From positions 65,301-129,300 of the forward strand of contig CAYVFE010000001.1 in NCBI GenBank assembly GCA_964450885.1: 64,000 nt of DNA, in the 5' to 3' direction. The position numbers and the translations under genes were made by a program. The DNA is from an uncultured Gammaproteobacteria bacterium. GTDB taxonomy: Bacteria > Patescibacteriota > Microgenomatia > Levybacterales > GWA1-39-11. Position 1 is the stretch's first letter. Each line of letters begins with the position of its first letter. This document shows positions 27,628 through 48,388 of the stretch, piece after piece. The notes beneath the pieces were generated by a model. That model worked only from the letters and a program-made list of their open reading frames with translations. It did no database searches and was not told the DNA's origin.

Positions 27628-28722
27628 ATGGAAGTAGAGCTATTAACAGAAAACATAGAAAAGTATTTGTCTACTCTTGTAAAGATACTACCAACTAATT
27701 CTCAAGTACCAGTTCTTTCAAATATTCTGCTTGAAGCAAATGATGAAGGGTTTTATATCAAAGCAACGGATCTTGAGATAGGGATAATAATAAAAATTCC
27801 AGCAAAAATAAATAAAAAAGGTGCGCTTACTGTACCTGGTAAGCAGTTTATTGAAGCTGTTACGAATTTGCCCAAAGACAGGATCTTGATGTCTGAGGAT
27901 AAGGAAAAGCTTAGGATATCGATAAGAGAAAGTAAGTTGTCTTTTCAGACGCTTAGCTCTATGGAGTTTCCGGAGCTCATGAAGAAAAAAGGTGAGAAGA
28001 TCATTTCTTTGAAAAAAGAGGTGTTTGATAAGCTTTTTGACCATCTATCCTTCTCGGCGTCAACGGATGACATAAGACCCCATTTAACGGGCGTATACAT
28101 AGTGAAAAACGGGAGGCTGGTTGACATGGTAACGACCGATGGATACAGATTAACGGTAAAGTCCGCAGACAGCGACAATATGTCAAAGATTGAAGAGCCG
28201 ATTATAATATCTATTCAAGTAATAAGTGAGGCTATGGGTATAAAATCTGCGAACATCGATATGTATGTTAATGTGGAAGAGAGCCAAGTAGTATTTGAGG
28301 GTGGAGACATTATATTGATCGGGAGGCTTATTGATGGCAAATTTCCGCCATATGACAAGGTTATGCCTCAGGATACATCTACAAAAGCAACGGTTGATAG
28401 GGAAGAGTTTATTCAGAATGTAAGACTTGCAAGCGTGTTTGCAAAAGATCAGTCAAATGTAGTGGGGATCGAGATAAAAGGATCAGAGTTAAAGCTTAGT
28501 GCAAAAACCTCCGGGGTCGGTGAGGGAGAATTTGTAACGGATTGCGAGAAAGAAGGGGACGATAACACAATCGCTTTCAATATCCGCTATCTTATGGACG
28601 CGTTAAAAAATTTTGAAGGAAAAAAAATAACACTCGGGGTAAATGGCCCAACTCAGCCAGCGCTTCTAACTGACGATAAGAACTCCTTTAAACACGTCAT
28701 AATGCCGATAAAAACTGACTAG
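27628..28722 (+). CDS. dnaN: DNA polymerase III beta sliding clamp
   Basis: 364 aa, three-domain clamp pattern. Sits directly after dnaA. Confidence 0.85.
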   Translation: MEVELLTENIEKYLSTLVKILPTNSQVPVLSNILLEANDEGFYIKATDLEIGIIIKIPAKINKKGALTVPGKQFIEAVTNLPKDRILMSEDKEKLRISIRESKLSFQTLSSMEFPELMKKKGEKIISLKKEVFDKLFDHLSFSASTDDIRPHLTGVYIVKNGRLVDMVTTDGYRLTVKSADSDNMSKIEEPIIISIQVISEAMGIKSANIDMYVNVEESQVVFEGGDIILIGRLIDGKFPPYDKVMPQDTSTKATVDREEFIQNVRLASVFAKDQSNVVGIEIKGSELKLSAKTSGVGEGEFVTDCEKEGDDNTIAFNIRYLMDALKNFEGKKITLGVNGPTQPALLTDDKNSFKHVIMPIKTD

Positions 28723-29243
28723 GGGTGGGCGTGATTTAACTCTTCAGGGGAAAGAGTTGGAATAGAGGTGACGATTGAATAAGTATATGGTCTTAATAGG
28801 CGCTTTCCAGAAACGGAGCTCGTTGCTTGAAGAAGTGTTATGTATGTTCTTCCGTTTGCCCACAAGGTTTTAGGGATAATAAAAACCTGATTATTGTTGG
28901 ATCCCCTAATAACATTGACTTCTGTAGGGGGTGAAATTTCAATAGTTAGGTCTTCTGGTAGTATTTCGTCATTGAATTGGAGTGTGACTTTTTGAATAGG
29001 AAGAAATGACGCATCCGAGTCTTCTGCTGGAAGCTCTGATACAACAATTAATTCGTTTTCTCCCGGGGTAGTAGAGGGAACGAGTGTTGGTGTCTGAAAG
29101 GGGGTCTGATTTTGAATTGTCGCAGTTCTATTTTGGCGGATATTAATAAGAAAAATAAGCATAAAAATAACACTTACAATAATAAGAGCTGCTATAATTA
29201 ATAAAACCATTGTTTTTCTATCCATAATACTTATCCTACGCAA
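28719..29243 (-). CDS. membrane-anchored hypothetical protein (T4SS-like locus, distal end)
   Basis: 174 aa, N-terminal TM. Overlaps the upstream gene by 13 nt. Confidence 0.4.
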   Translation of the reverse strand: MRRISIMDRKTMVLLIIAALIIVSVIFMLIFLINIRQNRTATIQNQTPFQTPTLVPSTTPGENELIVVSELPAEDSDASFLPIQKVTLQFNDEILPEDLTIEISPPTEVNVIRGSNNNQVFIIPKTLWANGRTYITLLQATSSVSGKRLLRPYTYSIVTSIPTLSPEELNHAHP

Positions 29244-29824
29244 AAATACAACGGTGCTTCAAGTGGAGTTTCTGATCCATTAGAATTAATCCTCCAAAAT
29301 TCTATATGTGTATGGGGACCGGAGCCGTTACTGCAAGGTTCGATACACATATTTACAGCTATATCTCCTGACTGTTTTGTGCCACCTCCACTACCAGGAA
29401 GAGAGTGGTGAAATCTGATCTTATACTGTTCGCCAGTTTCGGGGTTGGTTCCAGCGTATGCAATATATGAAGTACGCGAATCATTCGGTGTTTCGCTCAA
29501 CCAAGCCCATGTGATTACGTCTCCGTATATAGTAGGTAGGTATACGGGGTCACCTTCTGCTCCACCGATATCTAGCGCATAAGCAAGAGATTCATAACAT
29601 CCCCCATATGCAGAGCAGTAGCTTGCGCTCCCATGTGCACATCCACCCCTAGGATGGTTTCTGCTTCCGCAACTAAGAGGGCCACCAGGGACTGGACAGT
29701 CGGACGCGTTGGTTGTAGGATTCCCGACTCTGGTTCTTACTTCGTTACTTTCAGACTGCTGTTGGGCAATGACAATCGAAGGAAATAGCAAAGCAAGCGA
29801 TAGTATTATCAGTATTTTTCTCAT
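29231..29824 (-). CDS. secreted M23/LytM-like peptidase domain protein
   Basis: Signal peptide. M23 blocks ALDIGGAEGDPVY, KIRFHHSLPG and GPHTHIEF. The first His of HxxxD is replaced by Ala (AYALD). Confidence 0.55.
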   Translation of the reverse strand: MRKILIILSLALLFPSIVIAQQQSESNEVRTRVGNPTTNASDCPVPGGPLSCGSRNHPRGGCAHGSASYCSAYGGCYESLAYALDIGGAEGDPVYLPTIYGDVITWAWLSETPNDSRTSYIAYAGTNPETGEQYKIRFHHSLPGSGGGTKQSGDIAVNMCIEPCSNGSGPHTHIEFWRINSNGSETPLEAPLYFCVG

Positions 29825-29827
29825 TGT

Positions 29828-30394
29828 TTATTGAAGCCATTGCTCGGCCATCTCTCTTTCATAGGCCCTGTCTCCCCACGAGATATAGATTCTTGATGTA
29901 TCTGCTCCCTTTGATTCAAGCCAGTTTAGAACGAGCCCTGCAGCCTCGATAAAAGAATCTCTGTTTAGTTGGTACTGAGGATCGTCATCAGTTGTCCTGT
30001 AATCAACACCAGTGATATAAACTGTCAGTATCCATGGAGTATTCTCCAGTAGGTTGTCAGGAATAGAAATATCAATTAGTAGACCTGTCGATAGCGTATG
30101 GGAGGAAAAGTAGGGGAGGTGCTCCTTGATCTTTTCAAGTTCGGTAATTGACGCCTGTATTGCCTGATCTTCAAGGTCTGCCCCTCCACCTTCCTCGACG
30201 GGTTTTACTGGAATACTTTCAACTTTTTCAGGAAGTTTCTCACCAATATCTCTAATAGGTGAAAGTGTGGGCGTCGGTATGTTGGGCTGAGTAACAGGGG
30301 AGAGGGTTTTTACAATATTTGAAATCATAAAAATAACAAATATAATTCCTAGACAGATTACAATAAAAGCGATTATTAGTTGTTTTTTGCCCAT
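29828..30394 (-). CDS. membrane-anchored hypothetical protein
   Basis: 188 aa, N-terminal TM then an acidic ectodomain. Confidence 0.4.
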   Translation of the reverse strand: MGKKQLIIAFIVICLGIIFVIFMISNIVKTLSPVTQPNIPTPTLSPIRDIGEKLPEKVESIPVKPVEEGGGADLEDQAIQASITELEKIKEHLPYFSSHTLSTGLLIDISIPDNLLENTPWILTVYITGVDYRTTDDDPQYQLNRDSFIEAAGLVLNWLESKGADTSRIYISWGDRAYEREMAEQWLQ

Positions 30395-30398: not shown

Positions 30399-31652
30399 TT
30401 ACAAATATTTAGATATCCCTAGTATAGCAGAGAGGGTACCAGCTCTCGAATCCAGATAGGGATCCTTGTATCCGTCTCCCGCATATATAACATACATATC
30501 CTCATGCATCGCATCATAAAAATTCATAACATAAGGATTGTCGTCACCGATAAAGCGGGGTGGACAATTCCCAGCAGTTTGTCCCCACGGGGCACCATGA
30601 TGACAGTTTGAATTTCCAGGATAGCCATTGTATCTTGCGAGGCCGTTGGCAACGTCCTCGTAGGTTTGCGGGATTTTTCCTCCTATTTTTCCTTTAAAGT
30701 GTTCTGCTGCATAAACTGCACTATCAGCAAATGTTCTAAATCCGCAACCCCCACCAATTGCTACAGCCTTTCCTGGTGTGTACGTCGAAGTACAGCTTCC
30801 AGCAGGTATATCAGGTTCAACATTGCCTATAGGTCTTCCGCTTACCAGAGATCCGTTAGGGTTAAAGTCTCCTTCTCTGTAGTGAATGCCTGCGAGAATT
30901 TGCCAAGGAAGACCGGTGGCGGCTTCAGCCTCCTGGTAGGCGGCAATTAGATTTGGCAATCCGCGCAATGTGCTCGCTATCTCCTGTTGTTTTGCGTCAC
31001 CCCTACTTGAGGCGCCAGACTGAGGTGGGAGAAGTGTTGCAATATCTCCTCCGGCACCCGCAGCTGTCGTTCTTGCATAGGCCTTCACAGCAAATAATAT
31101 ATCATCCTTGGTGGGTCTTAGTGTTAGTGTGATAGATGTTTGGTTTGTTGGGTTTTCAAGAGGCCAGGATACTGTCCCAGAAGAATTGGTGGAGGCGCCG
31201 CTTGCGGATTCGTAGGTGGCATTTTGTGGTAAATCAAAATAAATGGTTATGCTTTCAAGTGGAACTACTGCGACTACATCATCATACTCGTAGGAAATCG
31301 TATATTGAATCAGTTGGCCATTATCCACAGTGGTTGGGCCAGTGAGGGTTAGGGTGAATCCCTGAATGGGGGGGCGTGTGGGTGCTCCTGCTATGGGGGT
31401 TGGCTCTACCGGGGTTGGCGAGTGATTCAATCCGCTTCCGCTGCCACCTGAGAAGAAAAACATTATTATTATGAAGAAAAACCCACCGACCCCTATCAGA
31501 AGTGGAGCTTTAGAATATACTTGTTTTTTAATAAAGCTCTTTAGCTTCTTTTGAACTAGGGTTTGAGGATAATTGTCCTGACTATTTCTGCGTCTGTTTT
31601 GTCTGGGCGCAGGCGCTTGCTGTTGATTGGGTTGAGGTCTGTTATCGTCCAT
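30399..31652 (-). CDS. secreted Pro-rich protein with lytic-transglycosylase-like (SLT-like) motif, putative VirB1-like cell-wall hydrolase
   Basis: Pro/Gln-rich N-terminus, one TM, LPWQILAGIHYREGDFNPNGSL resembling SLT ESxxNPxAxS, and a Cys-rich C-terminus. Confidence 0.35.
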   Translation of the reverse strand: MDDNRPQPNQQQAPAPRQNRRRNSQDNYPQTLVQKKLKSFIKKQVYSKAPLLIGVGGFFFIIIMFFFSGGSGSGLNHSPTPVEPTPIAGAPTRPPIQGFTLTLTGPTTVDNGQLIQYTISYEYDDVVAVVPLESITIYFDLPQNATYESASGASTNSSGTVSWPLENPTNQTSITLTLRPTKDDILFAVKAYARTTAAGAGGDIATLLPPQSGASSRGDAKQQEIASTLRGLPNLIAAYQEAEAATGLPWQILAGIHYREGDFNPNGSLVSGRPIGNVEPDIPAGSCTSTYTPGKAVAIGGGCGFRTFADSAVYAAEHFKGKIGGKIPQTYEDVANGLARYNGYPGNSNCHHGAPWGQTAGNCPPRFIGDDNPYVMNFYDAMHEDMYVIYAGDGYKDPYLDSRAGTLSAILGISKYL

Positions 31653-33927
31653 TGTTCAATCCACCAACTCCTGTGTTTTGGTGGCCAGGGTTACTAACCT
31701 GCTGCACGTTTTGAGCTGTACCATTGGACACGTTGGAGCCGCTCGTGGCAGCTGGTTTGGCAAAGTAATTTTCGGACGCATGGTTTTGTGTTTGAAATTG
31801 ACCCTGCGATTCATTGATATTTATCTCAGTTCCTTGCGCCATGGCAGGAGCCGTGGGGGTCATTGAAGCTTGTGGCATAGGTGGGACAGTAGGCGTCTGG
31901 GCAGCAGGTTGCATCACTACAGGTGTCTGCTGGACAGGGGGCGTAGACGGATTTTGATTGATCTGAGTGTTGGGCTGCTGCATCATTTGGCCAGTGTCTG
32001 GCGTCATCGGCTCCGGTTCTGTGGGAGTAGGAGGTATGGAGGCTTCGCTTTGCTGCTCTAAAATGTCTTGTGGTTTTGAGGTTATCAGGTCGTATTCGAA
32101 TTGGGAAGAAATGAATTGTGCAGTGACGTGATTCTGTCCCGCAAACAGAAGTCCCTCTCCCACCTGCGCTGTGAGCAGATACTGTTTTTCTCCTCCAGAT
32201 AGATTTAACGTCTTTGCGAGGGTCTCTACCTCGGAAGATCCCTGTTTCAAAAGTATTTGTATAGAAGAATTCGAAAGAATAGCTTTGCCATAGTCACTTC
32301 CGAGAAAGTCTTCGATGTCTTGTGTTAGAGTTGTTACTCCCAAATAGTATTTTCTAGCCCTTTTCGCGATCCCCTGTAGGAAGGCTGCAGAATCGGGATA
32401 GCGCATCATGTACCAGGCCTCGTCAACTACAAGTATCCTTTTCTTTAGTTTTGTTCTAACTCTTGACCATACGAAGTCCAGAATGACGTGCATAGCGATA
32501 GGACGTAGGACGTCTTCCAGCTGGCGGAGAGAAAAGACAGTCATCTTATTCTGAACATCGTAATTTGTTTGTTGATTAAATAATCCCGCGAAACCTCCCT
32601 TTACATACTTTTCGAGTCTAAATGCGAGCTCTTTTGCCTCCGATTCTTCCATGTTAAGAAGCGTTTTGTATAGATCTTCTAGGATCGGTGGTTCATTCTT
32701 GTATGTTGATGGGTCTGGTGTGATGCCTTTTTGTTTGTAGGACAGGACAAGCGCCCTGTCCATTATGGCTTCTTGCGTTGCGCTCATTTCTCCAAGCATG
32801 GTTTTTAGCAGTCCATGAATAGACAGGATTTTCAAGCTTAGCTGATTTTCGGACACGTCGTCAGAAAGAAGCGCGAAGGGGTTTATTTTTACCTCAGAGT
32901 CTTTTGAGAATGTGATATATTCTCCTCCCAGAGAGTCGCAAAGCGCCTTGTATTCGTCCTCAGGGTCAATGATAATAATTTCTGTGTCAAACATATACTG
33001 GCGCATGAGCTCGAGCTTGACGAGGAAAGATTTTCCAGATCCGGACTTTCCAAATACCACCTCGTTGGCATTTTCCAGAGAAAATCTGTCTACTATAACA
33101 AGCGAATTATTTAATGTGTTGACACCATACAAAATTCCATTCGGATGGGATATTTCGTAGCTCGTGAACGGAAAAGTAGACGCAACCGAGGTCGTATCCA
33201 TATTTCTTGTTATAAGAAGCTTGTCATCTCCTTTTGGAAGCGTTGTTTTGAAACCATCTTCCATTTGAAGCGTCGCGGGTTTTATGACTAGAAGGTTTGA
33301 CGCAAGAAGTGACGTCAGTTCTTTTGTCTTTAAGTTCAGTTCCTCAAGGTTATCTGCAGACAACGTCACGTAGAGCCCAAACTGAAAGAATCTTTCGAGT
33401 CCCCGTGCGAGTTCCTCTCTGAGTGCGACTGCATCTTCTAGAGACGCTTGAATTTTAGGATCTGGGACAATGCCGTTTTGCGCGTCAGATTGCAGCGTCG
33501 CCTCCATTTCCGCTATTTTTCGTCTTAGGTTCGACAGGACGTCCTTGCTTTCGACTGGATACAAAAACATAGAGATATTCATCGTTTCTTTATGGTCGAT
33601 AAGAATCGAAAGCCAGTTGGGGGATACCTGTCGAGGGTAGTCCACGACGAAAAACGTTCTATAGAATTTGTCACTAACCCTTATGTGTCTAAAGTCTACT
33701 TCGACGGATGATGGGGCTATTATGTCGACTATCGAAACAGAACCTTTTCTTAGCTCTTCCATGTGCTTTTGGGGTGCAGGCTTTTTTGCGCCCTTTTGTT
33801 GTGGTGGTGGAGCGGGTTGGGCAGGCGGTGTAGTCTGTCCTGGTTGTTGCGCAGGGGTAGCATTAGGTGCTTGTTGCTGATTTGGCACCTGTTGTTGTGG
33901 TTGTTTTTTATTTCCGATTCCAAACAT
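31642..33927 (-). CDS. VirB4/TrbE/CagE-family T4SS ATPase
   Basis: 761 aa. N-domain FFVVDYPRQV...WLSIL. Walker A GKSGSGKS, Walker B LVVDEAWYMM. Pro/Gln-rich low-complexity N- and C-tails. Confidence 0.8.
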   Translation of the reverse strand: MFGIGNKKQPQQQVPNQQQAPNATPAQQPGQTTPPAQPAPPPQQKGAKKPAPQKHMEELRKGSVSIVDIIAPSSVEVDFRHIRVSDKFYRTFFVVDYPRQVSPNWLSILIDHKETMNISMFLYPVESKDVLSNLRRKIAEMEATLQSDAQNGIVPDPKIQASLEDAVALREELARGLERFFQFGLYVTLSADNLEELNLKTKELTSLLASNLLVIKPATLQMEDGFKTTLPKGDDKLLITRNMDTTSVASTFPFTSYEISHPNGILYGVNTLNNSLVIVDRFSLENANEVVFGKSGSGKSFLVKLELMRQYMFDTEIIIIDPEDEYKALCDSLGGEYITFSKDSEVKINPFALLSDDVSENQLSLKILSIHGLLKTMLGEMSATQEAIMDRALVLSYKQKGITPDPSTYKNEPPILEDLYKTLLNMEESEAKELAFRLEKYVKGGFAGLFNQQTNYDVQNKMTVFSLRQLEDVLRPIAMHVILDFVWSRVRTKLKKRILVVDEAWYMMRYPDSAAFLQGIAKRARKYYLGVTTLTQDIEDFLGSDYGKAILSNSSIQILLKQGSSEVETLAKTLNLSGGEKQYLLTAQVGEGLLFAGQNHVTAQFISSQFEYDLITSKPQDILEQQSEASIPPTPTEPEPMTPDTGQMMQQPNTQINQNPSTPPVQQTPVVMQPAAQTPTVPPMPQASMTPTAPAMAQGTEININESQGQFQTQNHASENYFAKPAATSGSNVSNGTAQNVQQVSNPGHQNTGVGGLNNGR

Positions 33928-33928: not shown

Positions 33929-34567
33929 TTAGATTATTACGTTTTTTATATCTTTTGAATCAAAATTTAGATTTATTATGTCGTCGTTTAGGAGCTCATA
34001 AAACACTTTTATAAGTTCCTCGTGAGAAAGCTTTCTGGGAGCAAGCCCCATTCTTTCGATTTGCGACATTACAACGCTCGTCTTGGATAAAAGTGCTGCT
34101 TTTGCCTGATCCCCAAAATTAAGCTTCGCATTGGTCTTGTTGGGTTGAGCGGTGTTAGTTACCCCACCTTCCAGATAGGAGTAGGGAATGACGATATAGA
34201 TTTTTTTGTCCAAAAGTCCTTCTCCTTTAACAAGTTCCTGTATAAACTCCTTGTAGTACAGAAGGTGTTCTTTTATTTGGGGATGTTGGGTTGTTGAGAT
34301 TTTTTTGTCGAGATTGTCTATATAGCCTTCCATGTCGATTTTTTTCGAAACGATAAGTATCTGGATGGCAAAAGAAAGAGAATTGATAAGCGACATATAG
34401 CCATAGACTCTCGCGTTTTGCTCATCAGCAGACAGGAGGAAGAAGTTAACAGAAGACACGTCTATAAGCATGCACGCGCGTTTGTTTTTAAGCAGCACGA
34501 CATCGTCGACTATGTCAACAATTTCTGTGAAGCTTTGTGTTGTTGATTTTATATCTTTTTTCGCCAT
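33929..34567 (-). CDS. hypothetical protein resembling VirB4 N-terminal domain
   Basis: 212 aa. TQSFTEIVDIVDDVVLL...DVSSVNFFLLSADEQ parallels the VirB4 N-domain. Ends 1 nt before the VirB4 start. Confidence 0.4.
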   Translation of the reverse strand: MAKKDIKSTTQSFTEIVDIVDDVVLLKNKRACMLIDVSSVNFFLLSADEQNARVYGYMSLINSLSFAIQILIVSKKIDMEGYIDNLDKKISTTQHPQIKEHLLYYKEFIQELVKGEGLLDKKIYIVIPYSYLEGGVTNTAQPNKTNAKLNFGDQAKAALLSKTSVVMSQIERMGLAPRKLSHEELIKVFYELLNDDIINLNFDSKDIKNVII

Positions 34568-34569: not shown

Positions 34570-35670
34570 TTATTGCTGGACGGTGTTTCTGCCAAATAAT
34601 TCCTGTCTGAGCTTTTCTCTTTGATCGGTTGAGATAATTTCAAGTGGCTGGAATATTTCGTTATTCATTTCGATATCAATAGGGCTGAACTCATGAATGC
34701 GTCTGATGTCCTCAAGTAGTATCTGGTAGTTGCCTGCAGGAAGTGGTGTTGCAGATGAAAATTGCCCCAGTGCATTTGTCTTGAATGCTCTTACGGGGTT
34801 CCCTGTAGTATCGATGACCTCGACTATGATATTTGGTAAGACTTTCCCTCTTGCGTCTTTTACGATTCCCAGTACTACATTTGGGGTATCGGGAATCTGC
34901 GGGAAACCACTGGCGATCTGATTTTCTGGCGCGACAGATACTGCAGGAGTAGAGGGCATGCTGACAGTCTCTTGGGGGACAGGGATGGCTGGTGTTTCGA
35001 CTGGAGCAGGCATCGGTTGTTCTGCGACCGGTTCCTGAGCGGGCGCAGGTGTATATGCATCTGCCTTTATGGGCTCTGGGGAGCTGTGTGTTGGTGGTCT
35101 GACGATAACGCTTGGTTTTGTGTCCTCCTGAGGACTGCCAGTGTCGATGCTGCTCATCCCTGTGACTGGTGTCTGGGTATCATTGAATATTCCACTTATG
35201 GCATTTAGCTGGTCGCGTTCCTCCGCGTCAACTTTATAGGATGTGTTTTTTCTTACCAGCTGATTTAAGAGCAGTTGTTTCCTACTATCTTTTTGAGCAG
35301 GAGTGGGGCCGGCTGGAGCTTTCTGCATTTGCTGTGGGATGAAGTAGTCATGTAGGAGCGCTTCAGCACCTTTTTTCCGGAAGATATATCTGTTTTCTGC
35401 TGGTAATGCTTTCAAAAAGTTTATGAGCATAACATCCATTGGACGTCCTTCTATCGGCAGGAATGCAAGTCCTGCACCAAGTGACGCGATGACCATTATC
35501 GCTGGCCATTTGATCAGAAATGATATCGGCATGATGAAAAACACGCCACAAAGCGCCCCAGCTCCGAGGATGTACAGAAACTGTTTTACTGTAATTGAGC
35601 CTATGAGCCGAAATTTGAACCCAGTAACATCTTGAGGTATAGGATGATTTTCCATAAATAAGAGCACCAC
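34570..35670 (-). CDS. PrgI/VirB3-like membrane protein fused to Pro-rich linker and C-terminal domain
   Basis: N-terminus FKFRLIGSITVKQFLYILGAGALCGVFF with two TM segments, as in Gram-positive PrgI/TcpE. Pro/Ala-rich middle region. Confidence 0.45.
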   Translation of the reverse strand: MVLLFMENHPIPQDVTGFKFRLIGSITVKQFLYILGAGALCGVFFIMPISFLIKWPAIMVIASLGAGLAFLPIEGRPMDVMLINFLKALPAENRYIFRKKGAEALLHDYFIPQQMQKAPAGPTPAQKDSRKQLLLNQLVRKNTSYKVDAEERDQLNAISGIFNDTQTPVTGMSSIDTGSPQEDTKPSVIVRPPTHSSPEPIKADAYTPAPAQEPVAEQPMPAPVETPAIPVPQETVSMPSTPAVSVAPENQIASGFPQIPDTPNVVLGIVKDARGKVLPNIIVEVIDTTGNPVRAFKTNALGQFSSATPLPAGNYQILLEDIRRIHEFSPIDIEMNNEIFQPLEIISTDQREKLRQELFGRNTVQQ

Positions 35671-38241: not shown

Positions 38242-38506
38242 CAGTGACTGATGCTATCAGATTGAGAATCGCAAAAGACAGTAGTATAAGAAGAAGTCCG
38301 ATTATCGCATAGGTAAGAGTTTTTTTAGCATTGTCTACCTCCTGTGGGTCACCTTTACTGGTCACGAACTTGAACCCCGCAAAGATTATAAGAAAGAGAG
38401 CGACGACGCCCGCAAAGATAAGCGCCCATTGTACGACATTTTTTATGACTATCGGAACACATCTGAGTGTGGCGACATCGCCTTCAAGACAGGAAGCCCA
38501 TTCCAT
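38210..38506 (-). CDS. T4SS pilin-like (VirB2/TrbC-like) protein, paralog 1
   Basis: 98 aa, two hydrophobic helices flanking GDPQEVDNAKK, then IIGLLLILLSFAILN. Confidence 0.55.
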   Translation of the reverse strand: MEWASCLEGDVATLRCVPIVIKNVVQWALIFAGVVALFLIIFAGFKFVTSKGDPQEVDNAKKTLTYAIIGLLLILLSFAILNLIASVTGVGQITNPTF

Positions 38507-38990: not shown

Positions 38991-39308
38991 TTATATGAAT
39001 TTGATGCCAAATATTCCGCCGAGGATGTTTATTATCGCAAACGCAAGAAGGGCAACTATCAGTCCCAAAACCGCAAAGATTATCTGTTTTCTCGCCTCAT
39101 CTACTCTTTGAGGGTCACCATTCGACTGAATCCAGCGGATCCCAGCCCAGATAAGATATCCGAGAGAGGCGAGGATCACGACTATCAAAAAAATCTGCAT
39201 TCCTACAGAGATTATCGTCTCAAGAGTATTTGCACCTCCGCCGGGAACGCCATCTGGGGCTTTCACCTCTCCATATCCTGGAATTTGTAGTTGTGCAAGC
39301 TGTTTCAT
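38991..39308 (-). CDS. T4SS pilin-like protein, paralog 3
   Basis: 105 aa with NGDPQRVDEARKQIIFAVLGLIVALLAFAIIN, the same motif family. Confidence 0.6.
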   Translation of the reverse strand: MKQLAQLQIPGYGEVKAPDGVPGGGANTLETIISVGMQIFLIVVILASLGYLIWAGIRWIQSNGDPQRVDEARKQIIFAVLGLIVALLAFAIINILGGIFGIKFI

Positions 39309-40874: not shown

Positions 40875-42200
40875 CTACGAACTAAGCTTATAGCCAGTGC
40901 CTTTTATGGTTTTGATGAATGTAGGATTTGCAGGATCAGTTTCAATCTTTTTTCTGAGCCTGTGCATTATCTGATCAAAAGCCTGATCACTGACGCCTTC
41001 CTGGGTCTTCTGGTCCGTCCACACGGCATTTATGAGCTCGTTTTTACTGAGTACCTTGTCTTTATTCTCAAGCATAAATTTTAAGAGCTTAAATTCTGAC
41101 GATGAAAGTAATTGGGTGATCGGATTGTTTGCCTTAAGGATTTCATTTCTCTGGGCATCGTACTTAATCGATTCGTCGACATCGATTTTTTTGCTTTCGA
41201 TAAAGTCTACAAGTAGGGGAATCGACAGTTTTTTTCCTACCACAAGACCTGTTTTTGTGAGATATTTTTCTGAAAGGTTCTCAAAATCTTTATTTTTCAA
41301 TGCCAGCTTTTCGCTGGGAAGCAGGCTTTGCCAGACTTCACCTAGGGCACTTATTATAGTAGGCTTATCGAGGAGATATTTTTTAATGTCAGTTATTTTC
41401 TCGTCTTCCGTGACAAATTTTTCGTAAGCAAGCTTTGTCAGCTTTGAATGCCCCCCTGTTAGGTCCAGAATTTTTTCTGCGGTATCCTTTCCTAGAGACT
41501 TTCTGGACATCTTTTCTATGTATTTTGTCCTAAAGGAGATTGCGATAGGATCATAAATTGCGATATAGATTTCATTTCCTGTAACTATATCTGAAAAATC
41601 AGTAAGTATGTTTATGTCCACGGTTTCATCGAGCGGCCTTTTAAGTGAAAATATGGCTCCAAATCTATACTTTGCCAGATTCCTAAAAGTCTTAAGGTTG
41701 GCAAAGAAGTCTTCGGTCAGGTTAGGTGCGATCGTGTCAAACCTATCAAAGAGCAGGATCAGTGAGAGTTTTTTTTCGATAGTCAGAAATTCAATCGCTT
41801 TTTTTAAGAACTGCATCATCAGAAATTCGTCATTCATCGAGATTGCTTCTTGAAGAAGGGATCTTACCTTCGTGGACTCCTCCAAAAGTTGCCTTTCGCT
41901 CAAAGAAAATGCGATGGAAGAAAAGATGAGTTTTATTATGTCTATGTGATCTCTTCCCTTTGCCTCTGCTGAGTCTATATAGACAAAATGCATCAATTTC
42001 TCGTACGTTTTCAAGTGATATTTTCTGGCGTCTGTGTTGTATGCGAGGAGTCTGAGGAGGTTGTTTTTCCCCGTTCCCGGAAGTCCTATGATTTGCGCAG
42101 AAAGCCCTTTTTTAAGAAAGGTCAGATATTGGTGAATCTCTTTTTCGCGGGAATTTTCAGGATATAACGATTCAAAGTATTTTAGTGGTGTAAGTGTCAT
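40875..42200 (-). CDS. P-loop ATPase fused to C-terminal OmpR/PhoB-type winged-helix DNA-binding domain
   Basis: Walker A-like GLPGTGKNN near the N-terminus. C-terminal trans_reg_C pattern (ELINAVW...DQIMHRLRKKIE...IKTIKGTGYKL). Confidence 0.6.
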   Translation of the reverse strand: MTLTPLKYFESLYPENSREKEIHQYLTFLKKGLSAQIIGLPGTGKNNLLRLLAYNTDARKYHLKTYEKLMHFVYIDSAEAKGRDHIDIIKLIFSSIAFSLSERQLLEESTKVRSLLQEAISMNDEFLMMQFLKKAIEFLTIEKKLSLILLFDRFDTIAPNLTEDFFANLKTFRNLAKYRFGAIFSLKRPLDETVDINILTDFSDIVTGNEIYIAIYDPIAISFRTKYIEKMSRKSLGKDTAEKILDLTGGHSKLTKLAYEKFVTEDEKITDIKKYLLDKPTIISALGEVWQSLLPSEKLALKNKDFENLSEKYLTKTGLVVGKKLSIPLLVDFIESKKIDVDESIKYDAQRNEILKANNPITQLLSSSEFKLLKFMLENKDKVLSKNELINAVWTDQKTQEGVSDQAFDQIMHRLRKKIETDPANPTFIKTIKGTGYKLSS

Positions 42201-42346
42201 GTAAATATAGTATCACGCAAAATCCATTTGTAAGGCAAGTGTTAGATAGACGTCAAGATGATTATAGCTTCATAGTTTATATTGATCACATTATGGAGCG
42301 ATTGACACGTACGCACACGCTGGCATATCCTTTAGAAAGGAGCATT

Positions 42347-45300
42347 ATGGAAACAGGAAATGAAAGAGGGGGAGTACCCCAATCTAGCGACAAGAATAAC
42401 AAGTCAACAAATCTTGAGGCTTCAAAATCCCGGATGGAGCGGATGGTGGATCGTTTTAAAAAAGATAACGAAAAAACTCCGAGTGGGAACGGCAGCCTAA
42501 GAGATAAAGATGAGAATAAGTCTGCAGAAAGACCTTCGTCTGCTACTGTTGGGACAAGTAAGAGTGGTTTTAATCCCGAAAGGTTTAAAGAAAATCCATA
42601 TTTGCATGTGTTGGCGATGAGGGTAAGGGCCGCGGAGCAGGAGGGGAGAATCGACAACAAATTTCTCGATGAGCTTCGGCAGCAGACATACGAAGGAGTG
42701 GGAGAAGGAAGAATTTCGGATAACTGGGCATTTCAGTTCATCAGGGATATAGATAGAAATTATGTTGTGAATGCCAGCATCCAAAAAGAACACGATGACT
42801 CCAAAGAGCTCTCAAAAGATATAGAGGCGATAGTTGAGCAGAGAAAACAAAGAAGGCTTACTGCAGAGGAAATCGAGGCAAGTCGCGTCGCGCTGGAGAG
42901 CGCGTTCGGAAGAAAGCTTACGACATCCGAGCTTGATCGCGTAACAAGAGGTTCAAAAATCACTGAGAGCGGGAGGAATGCAGAAGCCTTTGGGGCTCAA
43001 ATCCAGACGATCGAAAAGCTTGTGGATAACCCTGATAGATTTGCGGCCTTCGAGTCTTCTCTGTCATCCCAAAGTCCGGATCAATTAAAAAGATTGCTAG
43101 GCGGAGATGGCGGGAGGCTGGTGCTGGGAGCATTACTTGGTGATATAGCTGAGAGGAGTAAGTATTTCCAAAGACTTGAGGAGATATTGAGCAAAGATCA
43201 GGCAGGGATGAAGGACGGATTGATTGCCTTATCAAGAGATATAAAAAGAGATGAGCAGGCAGCAAAACCTAAGGTCGACCCAGAAAAAGCAAGGCTTGCA
43301 AGAGAGCAGGCAGAGAAGTGGATTGAGGAGCAGAGGAAAAAACGTCAGGTTACGGCTGAGGAAGTAGATGCGATTCTCGCGAATGCGGAGAGGGGTGTAG
43401 GGCTTATTATGGGAGGCTCCGACTATAACGAGAACGCGGCAAATATAATGGAGCAGGTTGATATGATTTCAGATGAGACTGGGGAGGCTTTCACCAGAGC
43501 GAGGGACCTTTTAGTCGACGACGATTTGGTGAATGTTTTGGCAGAAGAAATATATGGAGTCGATCTTCCAAATATCAGGGCTGAAAAAAGTAAATTTCTT
43601 GATCTTAAAAATATCGATGACCCAGCAGTATTCAAGTCTCGTTACAAAAGTCTTCTTTCAGATCTACTAGCCAGGGCAAACACGGCAGCATCCGACCCAA
43701 GACGTTTGGAGGAAAGAGTGCAGGCTCAAAAAGACGCTGAGGAATTCACTGCAACGGGCGAGAAGACAAAGGGAGGGAAGACCTTTAATTTGCGAGGCCT
43801 TGAAGAAATAGTCAATAGCATATCACCGCCGCGTCCGGGAGAGCGTCCATTCTTTGAGCGCGAGCCCCGAAATATTAAAGAGGTTGCAGCATGGATTATG
43901 GCAGGGGATGATAGAAGCATTTGGGGGCCGGACGGGAGATATCCGATATTTAGCTGGGGTGAGGGGATAAATCCAGAAACAGAAGCAAGAAACGTTGATT
44001 TTCATGCCCAGAACTTAATACTCTGGCTACGCAATAAGTCTTTGGAGCATCATGCCGATAATCCTAACGACCCGCTAAATCTACTACAAGGAGTTGCGAT
44101 AGAGACTCTCTATAAATCGATAAGCATACTCACGATGAAGTATAACAAGCAAAAGTATTTTGCCGACGAAGAGGGCCGCCCGTTATCAAACCTTGCGGAC
44201 GAAGTCATAAATGAGGCTTGGCTTTTTGGAACCAGAAGAAACAAAAACCTTGGTTATATCCAGGCGATGAATAGCGACGAGAAGTTGTTTGAGGCGATAG
44301 TTGAGCTTAGTGGTAAAAATGATCATACAAACGGTAAGACTTTGTCTGGTCACCTTCAGATGGGTGAGAACTTTAGCGATACGGAAGGCAATGAGGACAA
44401 TAAGGTGGGGGATGCGATGCTGGCTGCAAATCTTATATATAGAAACCTTTCTGATATAGAAAAGCTAAGAGAGGTTTTGCCCGAAGGGTCGCAGATGTTA
44501 ACGCTTGAAGGTTTTAAAAAAGCTTCAAGATATTTGAATGAAGAAGGTTTTTCAGAAGACACTAATGGTTATGGAAACCTAAAGATAGAAGGAAATAGGG
44601 TTTATTTTCTGAATCCACAAACTAAGGTTAGGACGGAGATATTTAATAACGACGGAAAGCTTGTAAGTGATGCAAATCTTATAAAGTTTTTGAACTTCTT
44701 TCCGGAGGCAACTCCTCAAGAGACGAATGAGGCATTTGTGAGAGAGCTTGTCAAGCAAAGTATCGCAGGCATGGTTGGGTTTGATTCTGGAATGGAAAGC
44801 GAAAAATACGAGGAATTTATCGCGGAGCGCAAGGAGGCGCTCGGTAACGCTTATAAAGATATAAGCATTGCGGATTATAGGAAGATTCAGAGGATGAATC
44901 TTGAGTGGGCGGAGACGAATTCGTGGGTGGAGCAGCGATGGAATGGAGCTGCAGCCAGAAACGATACAGGATATAGGGGTTATGATGCGTGGACGAAGAT
45001 GTATGCGCAGTATTACCGCGAGCGTCAGTCTGGGGAGGGAACCGCTGGTCCTATCGGTAATCCCCATGATCTGCAGATATTTCGTCTCCTAACGCCCGAT
45101 ATGTGGCTTGCGATACGTACAGAATCCGGAGAGTCCGTCCAGGAAGTCTTTGAAGAGCTTCACATGCACAATCTTAAGCTATATCAACTTGGTCCGGAGC
45201 AAAAAAATGAAAGGGAAGCTATAGAAAATAAAAAGAAAAAAGTATACGAGAAGTTAAAATTTCCTCGGTGGACGGAGTCTGACTGGGCTGCAAACGGAGT

Positions 45301-46099
45301 CAAGCGTCAGGCAGAGGTTTGGCACAATATAATGAACACTGAGGATCTAAAGTTCAACGAGCTTGTGAAAAGAGACAACTGGGGAATACTAAGATATGAC
45401 AGACAGAAATTTGAAGAAGTCGTAAAGGACGACTTTATAAAAAAACGACGCTACGCTTTTTCATCTAATAACGCCATAAATTATGGAGCGGTGACGCGCA
45501 TGAGGGTAAGAAGCAGCTCAGATAAGGCTATAGACGGTTTTGAATTTAAGGATATGTATGTTGGAGAAGCTATGTTCGGAGAGGTAGTGATGGGATCTAT
45601 CAGACGGGATTGGTTCGATGGTAATCTGCAGTACGATGCAGCAGATGAGAATGGGATGGCTGTTAAAAAGAGTGCCCCTAAAAAGGGTGAGAAGTTCGAT
45701 CCAAAAAAACATGGAACTTTTCAGGAATATCTCAACTCGCGCTCCGGTAGGGGAAAGATACTCAAGAATGTATGTAGGGCGGGAATCGCTGCGCAGATTA
45801 ATGCGCATAGACAGCATACGGGCACCACTGAGAGATGGGATGCTGAAACGATTAGAAATCTTTTAGAGTCATTACATACAATGCCACAGTATGAGGAGGA
45901 CCCTGTTACAGGAGTAGAGGTAAAAAACGAACACGCTCAGTTCTTTTCCAAGGAAGACATAAAGTGGATAAGACAGCAGACAAGAACAACCAAGGGGTGG
46001 CTTATATTTGAGGATGCGAGGCATATTGGTTGGGATGCAGCAGCAGAGGGAATTCCAGAGATGTTCAAGATATTCTTCAAGGATGTTCTCTCTTCCTAA
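42347..46099 (+). CDS. very large (about 1250 aa) charged hypothetical protein, candidate secreted substrate
   Basis: Only long plus-strand gene in the locus. No TM or signal peptide. RBS GAAAGGAG before the ATG at 42347. The track ORF starts at 42194 and overlaps the neighbour's start. Confidence 0.5.
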   Translation: METGNERGGVPQSSDKNNKSTNLEASKSRMERMVDRFKKDNEKTPSGNGSLRDKDENKSAERPSSATVGTSKSGFNPERFKENPYLHVLAMRVRAAEQEGRIDNKFLDELRQQTYEGVGEGRISDNWAFQFIRDIDRNYVVNASIQKEHDDSKELSKDIEAIVEQRKQRRLTAEEIEASRVALESAFGRKLTTSELDRVTRGSKITESGRNAEAFGAQIQTIEKLVDNPDRFAAFESSLSSQSPDQLKRLLGGDGGRLVLGALLGDIAERSKYFQRLEEILSKDQAGMKDGLIALSRDIKRDEQAAKPKVDPEKARLAREQAEKWIEEQRKKRQVTAEEVDAILANAERGVGLIMGGSDYNENAANIMEQVDMISDETGEAFTRARDLLVDDDLVNVLAEEIYGVDLPNIRAEKSKFLDLKNIDDPAVFKSRYKSLLSDLLARANTAASDPRRLEERVQAQKDAEEFTATGEKTKGGKTFNLRGLEEIVNSISPPRPGERPFFEREPRNIKEVAAWIMAGDDRSIWGPDGRYPIFSWGEGINPETEARNVDFHAQNLILWLRNKSLEHHADNPNDPLNLLQGVAIETLYKSISILTMKYNKQKYFADEEGRPLSNLADEVINEAWLFGTRRNKNLGYIQAMNSDEKLFEAIVELSGKNDHTNGKTLSGHLQMGENFSDTEGNEDNKVGDAMLAANLIYRNLSDIEKLREVLPEGSQMLTLEGFKKASRYLNEEGFSEDTNGYGNLKIEGNRVYFLNPQTKVRTEIFNNDGKLVSDANLIKFLNFFPEATPQETNEAFVRELVKQSIAGMVGFDSGMESEKYEEFIAERKEALGNAYKDISIADYRKIQRMNLEWAETNSWVEQRWNGAAARNDTGYRGYDAWTKMYAQYYRERQSGEGTAGPIGNPHDLQIFRLLTPDMWLAIRTESGESVQEVFEELHMHNLKLYQLGPEQKNEREAIENKKKKVYEKLKFPRWTESDWAANGVKRQAEVWHNIMNTEDLKFNELVKRDNWGILRYDRQKFEEVVKDDFIKKRRYAFSSNNAINYGAVTRMRVRSSSDKAIDGFEFKDMYVGEAMFGEVVMGSIRRDWFDGNLQYDAADENGMAVKKSAPKKGEKFDPKKHGTFQEYLNSRSGRGKILKNVCRAGIAAQINAHRQHTGTTERWDAETIRNLLESLHTMPQYEEDPVTGVEVKNEHAQFFSKEDIKWIRQQTRTTKGWLIFEDARHIGWDAAAEGIPEMFKIFFKDVLSS

Positions 46100-46114
46100 C
46101 AAATAAGAGAAGCA

Positions 46115-48388
46115 TTACGAACTACTAGTCCGTTCCCTTAAGTTATTTATTGCTTCTAGTCTTATATTAGTTCTTTCTTCATCTGACATGTTCGTTAGTC
46201 CTCGATCATTCTTAATTATTTCTACTTCGTTTGTAATTTCCTCCTCAGTAAAAGCAGATGGAGCAGGTCCGCCTGTTGTTGGGGGCGTTGCAGGCCCACC
46301 TGTGGATGGGTTTCCAGATGCTATTCCAGAGCCTAGCGCAGACCCTTTCCTATTTTTAATAAGTTGTGGGAGTGGTGTACTTAACACTCGTTGAAATCTT
46401 GATAGACGACTTCCCCCTCCAGTTGGAGAGCCACCTGATGGGGGTGGAGTACCGCCGGATGGAGGAGTGGAAGACCCTCCTTCGTCATCTCCCGGTTCTT
46501 CTGGTTTCGGATTATTTCTTTCTGCCTCAGCCAGTAATATAGCTTTTCTCTCTTCGGATTTTTCACGCCTTTTCTTTCTTGCTTCGGGAGTGCTAAATTT
46601 ATCTCGCAGCTTGTTAAGAGTTGGGATTTTTTCCATTCTTTCAGTAAACTTTTCCCCACTCCATGCCTTTAGTCTTCCAGACTCACCAGTATGAGGATTG
46701 GTGTACCATAATGATTTTCTTATTCCTCCGAATGCTCCTCCGACTACTCCGCTTCCTACGCCCAAAGACTTGCCCATGCCACCAATAAGTCCTCCTGTAT
46801 CGGGAGCCTTTAATGCGCTTTTCACGATATTAAGTGCCTCAGGCATTATGAGTACTACTCCAAGCCCTATGATTGAGGCGAACCCCGAGGCTGGGTTGTC
46901 TCCAAGCTCACCCACGAATGGCGGGATAAGTATTTCTTGAGGAGAAGAAAAGGCCTGTTCCTGAATAGATTTACCTATTAGAAAAAGGAGTAGTACTGTC
47001 GGGAATGCTGCGAGATTTGCGATTATCATTCTTAGCCAGGAGCCAATCCCCCCTCCAACTCCAGGAAGAATGCCGGCAAGTATCCAAAATGGAGCAAATA
47101 TCGTCCCTACGAGGACCATGATAAATGCCTTAATAAGCATTATCCATGTCCGAAATAGTGCGGAAAGCACCGCGATAAGTATAACAAGGTATGCTATCAG
47201 AAATGCGACTAGTTTTATGAAGCTTCCAGCAGTAGCAACACCTATTGCTCCGCCAGCTGCACCTCCGACAAGGCTTCCGATAGTTGATCCTGCAAGTGCT
47301 CCAGATCCTACACCAGCACTTACTGCCATAATAGCAGGAATTAACGCTAGACTAGCTCCTCCTGTGGGGAGGGCTAAGAAAGCAGCTACGCCTCCCAAGA
47401 CAAGTCCGCCAATGCCTCCTAGTAGCTTTCCTATCCCGGCGCCGGCTGACCCGCCGATAATTCCTCCTAATGCCTTAGTAAGGAAGTTCCCGAGTCCACC
47501 ACCAAGATTACCGTCAAATATTCCGCCTAGCGCATTTCCAGCGCCCGTCGCTACAGGTTCTGTTATCGCGTTTATTCCACCTAAACCTCCAACCGCATTT
47601 ATGGGGTTAGTATCTATGCTAGGGATAGTTGCAAGTGCTCTTGAGTCAAAGATATTTATGATCAGATACATAAGCACATACATAGTGTCGACCAAAAAAC
47701 CGACTATCGCATACGAAAGAGTGATGAGAACGAGCGCTACAATTATCCGAGGCAGTTGGTTCTGGATTGTCATGACGCTCCTTGCGTCCAGATTTAGTCT
47801 GAACATGATCCCCAGTCCCAGGACGATAAACACTATTAGAAATAGAAAATACGTAATATCTCTAAATACTTCCCAAAGTTTCAGTATGGGCTTCAATCCC
47901 GCAAACCCGACACCCTGAGCATATGCATTCTGAGAGATGCCAAAATTTTCAGCAAGGTAGCCTCCATAGTGAGTTGAAGAAAGTGGGATATTGTAGGTTG
48001 CTCCAATCATATCTCCCGCGACCGCAATAAGCCCTCCATCAGGCTCAGCGTAACCGAGCTTTTTTGTGACGGGATTTACCCCAAGGCATCTACCGTCTAT
48101 GCTGAGTGGGTTAAATCCTGCCATAAAACACGATCCTGCTCCAAGGATTTCTATAAAGACACTCTGGGTATAGGTCGATAAGTTTTGCGGCACATCAGGC
48201 TCTGTGTTAAGAGGCAGCTGTTGCGGATTTTGAATTTGAGCACCCTGAGCTTCTTGTAGATTTTGGTTTTGAATAATTTCATTTGCGGAGGATGAGGATT
48301 CTGCCTGAGCAAATACAGACGACGAAGAAAAATATAGGAAGAACAGGGCACCTAATATAATAAATAAAAATTGCGATAATTTTTTCAT
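46115..48388 (-). CDS. VirB6/TrbL-like polytopic membrane protein
   Basis: 757 aa. Signal peptide, multiple TM helices, Gly-rich stretches, C-terminal Pro/Gly-rich tail. Confidence 0.5.
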   Translation of the reverse strand: MKKLSQFLFIILGALFFLYFSSSSVFAQAESSSSANEIIQNQNLQEAQGAQIQNPQQLPLNTEPDVPQNLSTYTQSVFIEILGAGSCFMAGFNPLSIDGRCLGVNPVTKKLGYAEPDGGLIAVAGDMIGATYNIPLSSTHYGGYLAENFGISQNAYAQGVGFAGLKPILKLWEVFRDITYFLFLIVFIVLGLGIMFRLNLDARSVMTIQNQLPRIIVALVLITLSYAIVGFLVDTMYVLMYLIINIFDSRALATIPSIDTNPINAVGGLGGINAITEPVATGAGNALGGIFDGNLGGGLGNFLTKALGGIIGGSAGAGIGKLLGGIGGLVLGGVAAFLALPTGGASLALIPAIMAVSAGVGSGALAGSTIGSLVGGAAGGAIGVATAGSFIKLVAFLIAYLVILIAVLSALFRTWIMLIKAFIMVLVGTIFAPFWILAGILPGVGGGIGSWLRMIIANLAAFPTVLLLFLIGKSIQEQAFSSPQEILIPPFVGELGDNPASGFASIIGLGVVLIMPEALNIVKSALKAPDTGGLIGGMGKSLGVGSGVVGGAFGGIRKSLWYTNPHTGESGRLKAWSGEKFTERMEKIPTLNKLRDKFSTPEARKKRREKSEERKAILLAEAERNNPKPEEPGDDEGGSSTPPSGGTPPPSGGSPTGGGSRLSRFQRVLSTPLPQLIKNRKGSALGSGIASGNPSTGGPATPPTTGGPAPSAFTEEEITNEVEIIKNDRGLTNMSDEERTNIRLEAINNLRERTSSS

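Follow-up and report, generated by a model that had tools for sequence, protein, structure and literature searches.

A probable Levybacteria member of the Patescibacteria-type type IV secretion systems, fixed beside the replication origin

Is a cluster of type IV secretion system (T4SS) genes beside a replication origin a conjugative element or a permanent part of the chromosome, and what does it carry across the envelope? The question is raised by positions 28719-48388 of a 64,000-nucleotide (nt) stretch of DNA (the window; contig CAYVFE010000001.1 of assembly GCA_964450885.1, positions 65,301 to 129,300), which was deposited as an uncultured Gammaproteobacteria bacterium. An earlier note, made from the sequence alone, took this locus for a chromosomally fixed, non-conjugative apparatus, plausibly used for host contact by an episymbiont from the Candidate Phyla Radiation (CPR). 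The present analysis supports that view. With a probability of about 85%, we regard the locus as the Levybacteria version of the Patescibacteria-type T4SS: a monoderm, non-conjugative system derived from the MPF_FATA class and permanently placed beside the replication origin. The window is part of the chromosome of a Candidatus Levybacteria (class Microgenomatia). Its closest VirB4 relatives come from Candidatus Levybacteria/Levyibacteriota (up to 85% identity), and others from further Microgenomatia such as Shapirobacteria and Beckwithbacteria.

The core of the system consists of three adjoining genes, listed here in the direction of transcription.

34570..35670, minus strand: PrgI/VirB3-like membrane protein (Pfam PrgI)
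33929..34567, minus strand: g212, TrsD-like protein of 212 amino acids (aa) (NCBIfam matches to VirB4 N-terminal regions)
31642..33927, minus strand: VirB4 ATPase of the monoderm type (Pfam, NCBIfam and PDB sequence matches)

VirB4 carries Walker A and B motifs and Q/P-rich tails. It matches Pfam P-loop_TraG (1.2e-36) and NCBIfam conju_CD1110 (419 bits, where 325 would suffice to pass), and its best solved relative is the VirB4 of Thermoanaerobacter (PDB 4AG5, 1.1e-46). Both the conju_CD1110 and the 4AG5 match relate it to the VirB4 proteins of monoderm MPF_FATA systems. The usual N-terminal domain is missing from the protein, which covers positions 176-732 only of the conju_CD1110 profile. 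The g212 protein matches what is missing: positions 99-282 of VirB4_plasma (1.8e-9), positions 18-181 of conju_CD1110 (1.6e-3) and, below the cut-off, positions 12-200 of 201 in the TrsD model (6e-5), all in NCBIfam. A precomputed TraC-like match (PF26593) is weak. VirB4 is therefore split, and judged from these profiles g212 is its detached, TrsD-like N-terminal domain. The PrgI protein matches PF12666 (4.3e-7, 30.8 bits against a cut-off of 27). Two transmembrane (TM) helices are followed by a Pro/Ala-rich linker and by a C-terminal CarboxypepD_reg-like beta-sandwich, which stays below its Pfam cut-off (4.2e-6, 27.5 bits against 32.3). Given the two TM helices, this domain and the N-terminus would face one and the same membrane side. 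It is better conserved than the linker (50-59% identity). VirB4 and PrgI had been named from the letters alone, and the searches agreed with both names.

A VirB4 scan of one genome per species gave 80 loci, against which all window proteins were compared by tblastn. The named records among these relatives are overwhelmingly CPR/Microgenomatia, and the few exceptions are evidently mislabelled titles of metagenome-assembled genomes (MAGs). Third-party annotation records of Microgenomatia MAGs (L003-L080) are often titled 'uncultured Gammaproteobacteria', 'Pseudomonadales', 'Nevskiaceae' or 'Bathyarchaeia', and such labels are unreliable. Besides VirB4 (80 loci), g212 was found in 75, PrgI in 69, dnaN in 66 and dnaA in 63 loci; the pilins were found in 33-34, the regulator g441 in 19, g417 in 18 and the membrane protein g757 in 12. 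The g212 gene lies immediately upstream of VirB4 in all 75 loci that have it, and PrgI, TrsD and VirB4 are colinear in 66 of the 69 loci with PrgI. The adjacency of PrgI to TrsD-VirB4 in most of these Microgenomatia loci is an increment over the published census of Patescibacteria T4SSs. In 61 of 66 loci VirB4 is followed by a convergent dnaN gene, the median distance between them being 3.3 kb, and this place next to dnaN-dnaA is kept down to about 50% VirB4 identity. Thus, the synteny comparison that the earlier note had proposed showed an order kept beside dnaN-dnaA in most of the species-level genomes.

Genes of mobility were not found. In the 59 open reading frames (ORFs) scanned, which include every window ORF of at least 110 aa, Pfam detected no relaxase, integrase, recombinase, VirB11 or plasmid replication gene, in agreement with the earlier note, and the unassigned window ORFs contained no HUH-like motif. 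No protein of the locus had a Pfam match to VirB9, VirB10 or T2SSE, that is, to a diderm outer-membrane core or VirB11. Direct repeats at a tRNA gene would have pointed to an integrative and conjugative element (ICE). No att-like repeats bracket the locus, the direct repeats found being short pairs at chance level, and the tRNA genes, at 6.5, 60.7 and 63.8 kb, are away from its borders. The G+C content is similar to that of the flanks. The colinear core and its convergence with dnaN-dnaA show that the locus is chromosomally fixed. It is a vertically inherited chromosomal fixture beside oriC and not an ICE.

The cumulative GC skew of the window is minimal at dnaA/dnaN, and DnaA-box counts were not above chance. 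The T4SS operon lies right beside the origin on the strand opposite to dnaA-dnaN (window 26-36 kb) and is therefore head-on to replication. This orientation is left unaddressed by the published gene-dosage idea.

Upstream of the core lies an array of pilin genes.

38210..38506, minus strand: pil98, VirB2-like pilin paralogue 1, 98 aa (PF18895 T4SS_pilin, 2.6e-12)
38516..38944, minus strand: VirB2-like pilin paralogue 2, 142 aa including a signal peptide (PF18895, 7e-10; alignment A3)
38991..39308, minus strand: pil105, VirB2-like pilin paralogue 3, 105 aa (PF18895, 1e-8)
39312..40850, minus strand: g512, signal peptide, Cys-rich extracytoplasmic domain and C-terminal pilin domain (PF18895, 7.3e-9, residues 408-473)

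By Pfam, each of three small proteins thus has a PF18895 domain and a fourth such domain ends the 512-aa g512, which bears out the four pilin paralogues described earlier. The domains are 37-40% identical to the first of them. In g512, a hydrophobic N-terminal segment precedes an extracytoplasmic domain of about 380 aa with 10 Cys. The gene heads the pilin array in 33 loci, and its product may be a pilus-associated adhesin or a minor pilin. Two small pilins, pil98 (with two hydrophobic helices) and pil105, exceed the cut-off of 40 bits for NCBIfam NF045849, the Mbov_0395 pilin-like family of Mycoplasma ICEs (42.8 and 43.2 bits). VirB2-like pilins are therefore possibly not foreign to monoderm T4SSs, and the pilin may be native to these systems rather than borrowed from diderm ones.

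A channel protein is suggested by the last gene of the locus.

46115..48388, minus strand: g757, divergent 'extended' VirB6/TrbL-like polytopic membrane protein (structure model, gene context)

Besides a signal peptide and at least six TM helices, this 757-aa protein has a loop rich in Gly, and it ends in a hydrophilic tail. Pfam gave no family match on the protein and the PDB profile search was also empty; its 121 homologues are all annotated as hypothetical, and a TrbL/VirB6 match was found in 2 of 42 family members. Structure prediction, which covered g757 and the large protein g1301, gave a g757 model that superposes best on TrwI/VirB6; Foldseek ranked VirB6 chains first, at E-values above 1. 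The gene adjoins T4SS genes in 12 related loci. We accept g757 as a probable divergent, extended VirB6 on the strength of this model, so that the VirB6/TrbL-like protein proposed earlier is recovered at the fold level while sequence searches on the protein itself stay empty. According to the census, VirB6 is scarce in Microgenomatia (PMC12102498). A divergent VirB6 family in this class is a new point.

Four further genes separate VirB4 from dnaN.

30399..31652, minus strand: g417, candidate lysozyme-like/VirB1-like wall hydrolase (TM helix at residues 45-75; matches of family members)
29828..30394, minus strand: g188, N-terminal TM helix (residues 1-35) and acidic extracytoplasmic domain
29231..29824, minus strand: g197, secreted Cys-rich candidate LAS/M23-like metallopeptidase (motif and domain-fusion evidence)
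28719..29243, minus strand: g174, N-terminal TM helix (residues 4-38) and a domain of about 130 aa

The earlier note counted two cell-wall hydrolases here. They were not borne out as such: motifs, domain fusions and naming point to g417 and g197 as candidates, and no hidden Markov model (HMM) or PDB match was obtained. In g417, the TM helix is followed by a DUF11-type Ig-like middle domain and a conserved C-terminal domain with an invariant Glu260. Among the 34 members of its family, DUF11 was matched in six, CHAP in one and SLT_3 in one (E 0.0066), and one homologue has been named 'lysozyme family protein' by the Joint Genome Institute (JGI). The middle domain lies directly downstream of VirB4 in 18 loci. 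The N-terminus of g197 resembles a signal peptide. Its family (alignment A2) has the invariant residues H64, D85, H139-H140 and H171xH173, in an M23/LAS-like spacing and without the HxxxD histidine; in L009 and L014 the domain stands behind a lysozyme-like 'WIEESG' domain in fusion proteins of 738-840 aa. In Candidatus Southlakia epibionticum ML1 (S. epibionticum), lysozyme-like and Hedgehog/DD-peptidase-fold proteins are encoded at the equivalent position near VirB4. The g188 protein had no family match in Pfam, NCBIfam or PHROGs, and homologues occur in only two loci (L018, L037). The last gene of the operon, g174, is kept beside dnaN in eight Levybacteria loci and had no Pfam or NCBIfam match; its positional counterparts in S. 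epibionticum may be SEML1_0004/0005, which are exported beta-sandwich proteins.

At the other end of the array stand a regulator and, divergent from it, a giant gene.

40875..42200, minus strand: g441, regulator with a C-terminal OmpR/PhoB-type winged-helix DNA-binding domain (Trans_reg_C, 2.4e-20)
42194..46099, plus strand: g1301, large soluble protein (ORF with start GTG 42194, or ATG 42293/42347/42434)

In the description of g441 as an ATPase joined to a winged helix-turn-helix (wHTH), the wHTH half stands. PDB matches (e.g. RegX3 at 8.7e-12, PhoB) and NCBIfam matches (VirG among them) are confined to it. The ATPase half was not borne out: the N-terminal domain of about 340 aa shows a deviant P-loop-like GxxGxGKN motif by eye and no HMM support; there is no receiver domain. 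The regulator gene lies upstream of the pilin array in 19 loci. The g1301 protein has no TM helix. Its N-terminal half is charged and of low complexity, and its conserved C-terminal module of about 750 aa is common to 191 representative clusters in an exhaustive HMMER search. PDB sequence and profile searches matched the low-complexity region only; Pfam, NCBIfam and PHROGs gave no match, and 43 family members had no informative Pfam domain. The module was modelled confidently (predicted local distance difference test, pLDDT, 90) and had no fold match in the PDB, relaxase- or primase-like folds included. Family proteins have about 1,000-1,600 aa. In each of nine VirB4-centred loci the gene stands at the edge, on the far side of the regulator, from which it diverges. 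In six further contigs a relative, down to 21-24% identity, adjoins the regulator, the VirB6-like gene or both, and the same company is kept in all 15 contexts. A metagenome scan with the narrow alignment A7 gave four loci only. This constant company makes g1301 possibly a dedicated part of the Microgenomatia T4SS. Tentatively, and at rather long odds, the family may be an unrecognised component, either a cargo/effector or a cytoplasmic processing or docking factor that replaces the missing relaxosome. If so, g1301 and the divergent VirB6 would fill what is 'missing' from the list of parts of the Microgenomatia system.

Between the pilin array and PrgI (35772-38241) sits a fast-diverging module of two genes.

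37867..38241, minus strand: g124, small acidic cytoplasmic protein (no TM helix, no family match)
35772..37865, minus strand: g697, highly charged tail-anchored protein (about 32% K/R/D/E; C-terminal TM helix at residues 661-691)

The single C-terminal helix agrees with the earlier description of the 697-aa protein as tail-anchored; Pfam, NCBIfam and PHROGs gave no family match for it. Homologues of g124 occur in eight loci, always paired with a tail-anchored protein, and the pair is inverted in several of them. Other Levybacteria have a gene of g697-like size and architecture in the same slot, in either orientation. The orientation of this module with its 600-700-aa tail-anchored protein differs between L004, L005, L011, L016, L019 and L064 on one side and L006, L012, L013 and L037 on the other. 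In a close relative (GCA_039738455.1, L083 1394-3281), an AbiEii/DUF6922 toxin-antitoxin pair and a 23S_rRNA_IVP gene stand between the tail-anchored protein and PrgI; the slot thus tolerates insertions.

A further gene, missed in the earlier note, bears on the recruitment of substrates.

60786..63173, minus strand: type IV coupling protein (T4CP)/VirD4-like ATPase; N-terminal TM helix, Walker A and B motifs (Pfam domains just above their cut-offs)

It lies 12 kb from the locus, beside tRNA-Ile (60666-60739). Pfam DUF87, TraG-D_C and TrwB_AAD_bind are each barely above the cut-off, NCBIfam SXT_TraD (4e-13) and conju_CD1115 (7e-9) are below theirs, and the only PDB matches are TrwB and DotL (E 0.017-0.044). 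In L057, L058 and L067 homologues directly adjoin PrgI and are divergent from it. With such a gene nearby and its homologues beside the T4SS, the apparatus is not necessarily free of substrate recruitment.

The earlier note held that the system as a whole is poorly described. That statement is outdated: equivalent conclusions were published in 2023-2025 (PMC10633639, PMC12102498, PMC12857230), among them Wang 2023 in Cell and Quinonero-Coronel 2025 in Microb Genom. In S. epibionticum, transposon sequencing (Tn-seq) showed the T4SS genes SEML1_0006-0019, with a series of pilins and no recognisable relaxase, to be essential for epibiotic growth (PMC10633639), and the supplementary tables place the cluster SEML1_0004-0019 beside dnaA-dnaN (PMC10633639). 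The census described a monophyletic Patescibacteria VirB4 clade related to MPF_FATA, widespread TrsD, PrgI, VirB6 and VirB2-like arrays, with a particular wealth of such arrays in Microgenomatia, T4SSs close to dnaA/dnaN with mostly unlinked T4CPs, a near absence of relaxases (found in 103 Patescibacteria genomes) and, in Microgenomatia, VirB3 that is mostly not associated with VirB4 (PMC12102498). A 2025 FEMS review speaks of a new T4SS type and of a possible conduit for uptake or signalling. The present locus is a further member of this published system, and every element of the first interpretation had already been published. The new points are small: the VirB6 family, the g1301 family, the module that changes orientation and the pilins that match Mycoplasma ICE proteins. 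Neither the census in its main text nor the consulted annotation of the S. epibionticum cluster deals with the regulator, the g1301 family or the pair that flips its orientation.

How might the apparatus work? The g441 regulator would control the pilin operon and possibly the divergent g1301, as their positions suggest. Secreted g417 and g197, if they are enzymes, could open the peptidoglycan locally in a VirB1-like role. By analogy with R388 and pCF10, VirB4 with its TrsD-like N-domain and PrgI/VirB3 would form the energising inner-membrane complex, and the VirB6-like g757 would serve as membrane channel or platform. VirB4 would then extract the four pilin paralogues and polymerise them into a pilus or conduit, of which g512 may bear an adhesive head. 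Contact of this filament or channel with the host would allow the contact-dependent exchange of macromolecules for epibiotic life. Protein substrates might be exported by way of the distal T4CP-like ATPase, and g1301 would be a candidate for the cargo or for an accessory in the cytoplasm. We slightly favour such protein export over the import of host nucleic acids or nutrients.

This overall reading, which the essential homologous system of S. epibionticum supports (PMC10633639), has to be weighed against several points. Essentiality is known for one Saccharimonadia species only. What has been observed in a cultivated member of the phylum is limited to tubular structures 'that may be T4SS pili' (bioRxiv 10.64898/2026.06.21.733656). 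The T4CP homologue of S. epibionticum is not essential (PMC12102498), which weakens the step of export through the T4CP. The relaxase search covered 64 kb of a 588-kb contig. The g757 model behind the VirB6 assignment is of medium confidence (pLDDT 68.8), with Foldseek E-values that are not significant. Finally, g197 and g417 gave nothing in Pfam, NCBIfam, PHROG or PDB, by single sequence or by family profile.

The best surviving alternative reverses the direction of transport: DNA, RNA or other macromolecules of the host would enter through the pilus/T4SS, in the manner of ComB and Ced, to feed a cell unable to make nucleotides, and the T4CP-like gene and g1301 would be unrelated to transport. 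It is the hypothesis preferred by the census (PMC12102498) and the FEMS review, and a 2026 preprint reports feeding on host RNA by a cultivated member of the phylum together with a monophyletic VirB4 clade (bioRxiv 10.64898/2026.06.21.733656). An essential T4SS with a dispensable T4CP in S. epibionticum fits import. So do the genes for nucleotide salvage and reduction that flank the locus (nrdR, a B12-dependent ribonucleotide reductase (RNR) and a ComF-like phosphoribosyltransferase), and NCBIfam gave weak VirB4 matches to the DNA-import ATPases CedB/CedD. However, these Ced matches reflect generic P-loop similarity far below the cut-offs, and neither Pfam nor NCBIfam recognised a DNA/RNA-binding or nuclease component in the locus. 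Moreover, the T4CP-like gene is intact and stands beside the T4SS in three relatives, and no monoderm VirB4 system of the clade is known to import. We therefore consider an importer a serious but doubtful alternative.

It is unlikely that the locus serves adhesion or pilus biogenesis only, with VirB4 assembling a VirB2-type filament for attachment to the host or its recognition and no substrate crossing the membrane. The four divergent pilin paralogues, one of them fused to a large Cys-rich extracellular domain, and the lack of a relaxase in the window would suit such a machine, and in the diderm VirB/Trw systems VirB4 by itself is able to drive pilus biogenesis. Microgenomatia commonly have pilin arrays, for which a role in adapting to host surfaces has been proposed (PMC12102498). 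However, conservation extends to a VirB6-like channel protein and a T4CP-like ATPase, Patescibacteria already adhere by type IV pili (PMC10633639), and the whole cluster is essential in S. epibionticum despite these pili.

An ICE or its decayed remnant, with relaxase, oriT and integrase outside the window or too divergent, is a very improbable reading and was rejected. In its favour, VirB4, TrsD, PrgI and the pilin-like proteins have homologues among the conjugation proteins of Firmicutes and of Mycoplasma ICEs, a T4CP-like gene lies beside tRNA-Ile, relaxases are known from some Patescibacteria genomes (PMC12102498), and g1301, a large uncharacterised cytoplasmic protein, would be one candidate. 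Against it stand the lack of mobility genes in the 64 kb and of bracketing repeats, the unremarkable G+C content, tRNA genes off the borders and the g1301 model. A recently mobile element, moreover, cannot be reconciled with a place beside dnaN-dnaA that is kept across species until VirB4 identity falls to about 50%.

The layout of the locus and its surroundings complete the picture. Fourteen consecutive minus-strand ORFs span 28719-42200, followed by the plus-strand ORF 42194-46099 (up to 1301 aa) and the minus-strand ORF 46115-48388. The tight packing noted earlier is real, but true overlaps, said to be many and of 1-13 nt, are few: 13 nt between g174 and g197, 11 nt between g417 and VirB4, and 32 nt between g124 and pil98 if a GTG start is used. 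Elsewhere neighbouring genes are 1-46 nt apart, except at one junction with a gap of 101 nt. Promoter and terminator scans gave nothing that exceeded shuffled sequences, and we therefore claim no operon boundaries. The end of dnaN (28722) overlaps that of the convergent g174 (28719) by 4 nt. Pfam confirmed the housekeeping neighbours dnaA, dnaN, nrdR and nrdJ, of which dnaA, dnaN and nrdJ had been listed before. The other window ORFs of at least 110 aa had housekeeping matches only, such as dnaG, rpoD, truB, dnaA, dnaN, nrdR, the B12-type RNR, pduO, smpB and spoIID.

Some side observations concern these neighbours. An AdoCbl-II (cobalamin) riboswitch (52288-52360, plus strand) lies just 5' of a PduO-type cobalamin adenosyltransferase gene (52433-52987) and downstream of the RNR with a TSCPD domain, the gene first called nrdJ. 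The tblastn matches of the window RNR are interrupted by about 1.1 kb in L083 (17480-20668) and L086 (7491-9686), which suggests an intein or other insertion in the nrdJ of these relatives, absent from the window gene. A transfer-messenger RNA (tmRNA) gene (55160-55547, plus strand; Rfam, 104.7 bits) adjoins the convergent smpB (55549-56001, minus strand). An 18-nt motif, TTT[GT]AGTTCAAAATATAA, occurs at 49180-49197 and 54340-54357, and with 83% identity at 27096-27113. It stands in intergenic DNA upstream of nrdR and of the ComF-like gene and may be a shared promoter or operator.

At present, the T4SS of Patescibacteria is the only one known without which its bacterial carrier cannot live. 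The window brings no new kind of system, but it does supply a Levybacteria example that is clean and complete. For Microgenomatia it gives leads, namely a divergent VirB6 and a PrgI-TrsD-VirB4 core that is adjacent in most loci. The conserved orphan giant g1301 and the OmpR-type regulator are candidates for cargo and control, and the link to the Mycoplasma ICE proteins speaks for a pilin that is possibly native to the monoderm T4SS lineage. Because no Levybacteria have been cultivated, these leads do not make the cargo and direction of transport directly accessible to experiment.

Among the closest known systems, the cluster of S. epibionticum shares its order with the locus. Both lie next to the origin, head-on to dnaA-dnaN, without a relaxase, and both run through beta-sandwich protein(s), wall-hydrolase candidates, VirB4, a TrsD-like protein, PrgI, VirB6-like or large membrane proteins and PF18895 pilins. 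However, the Levybacteria locus has three small pilins and the 512-aa fusion, whereas S. epibionticum has six small pilins on the opposite strand. Its hydrolase-candidate genes, which follow VirB4, are small, split and not recognisable by HMM. Its one VirB6-like gene is separated from the core by the regulator and g1301, while S. epibionticum has two VirB6/ARM-repeat proteins next to PrgI. In the Levybacteria locus we recognised no NTF2/VirB8-like protein; this locus adds the OmpR-type regulator, the g1301 family and the pair of g124 and a tail-anchored protein.

With the MPF_FATA systems (pCF10 Prg/Pcf, pIP501 Tra, pGO1 Trs and the CTn2 CD1110 type) the locus shares a CD1110-family VirB4, TrsD-like and PrgI-like proteins, the lack of VirB7/9/10 and VirB11, and wall hydrolase(s) encoded with the system, here as candidates. 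It differs in having no relaxase, oriT or PrgB-type adhesin, in its VirB2-like pilins, in its fixed chromosomal place beside oriC and in its unlinked T4CP-like gene. The Mycoplasma ICE module (pilin-like Mbov_0395, TM protein Mbov_0396, VirB4 Mbov_0397) resembles it in two pilins that pass the Mbov_0395 cut-off and in g212, whose best match is the N-terminal part of the Mbov_0397 VirB4 model. Unlike the window locus, Mycoplasma ICEs are mobile, with DDE recombinases, a single full-length VirB4 and no pilin array.

The diderm VirB/Trw systems (A. tumefaciens VirB, R388 Trw) likewise have VirB2-type pilins, VirB3, VirB4 and VirB6, and their VirG is an analogue of the OmpR-family wHTH regulator. 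The window locus, in contrast, has no VirB5, VirB7-VirB11 or outer-membrane core, its g441 is without a receiver domain, and its putative VirB6 is 'extended' by a Gly-rich insert and a long tail. To the DNA-import systems (H. pylori ComB, Sulfolobales Ced), the similarity to CedB/CedD is only that of generic P-loops, and no components specific to ComB or Ced were found; what the locus has in common with them is a relaxase-free, chromosomal apparatus driven by the VirB4 family and repurposed from conjugation.

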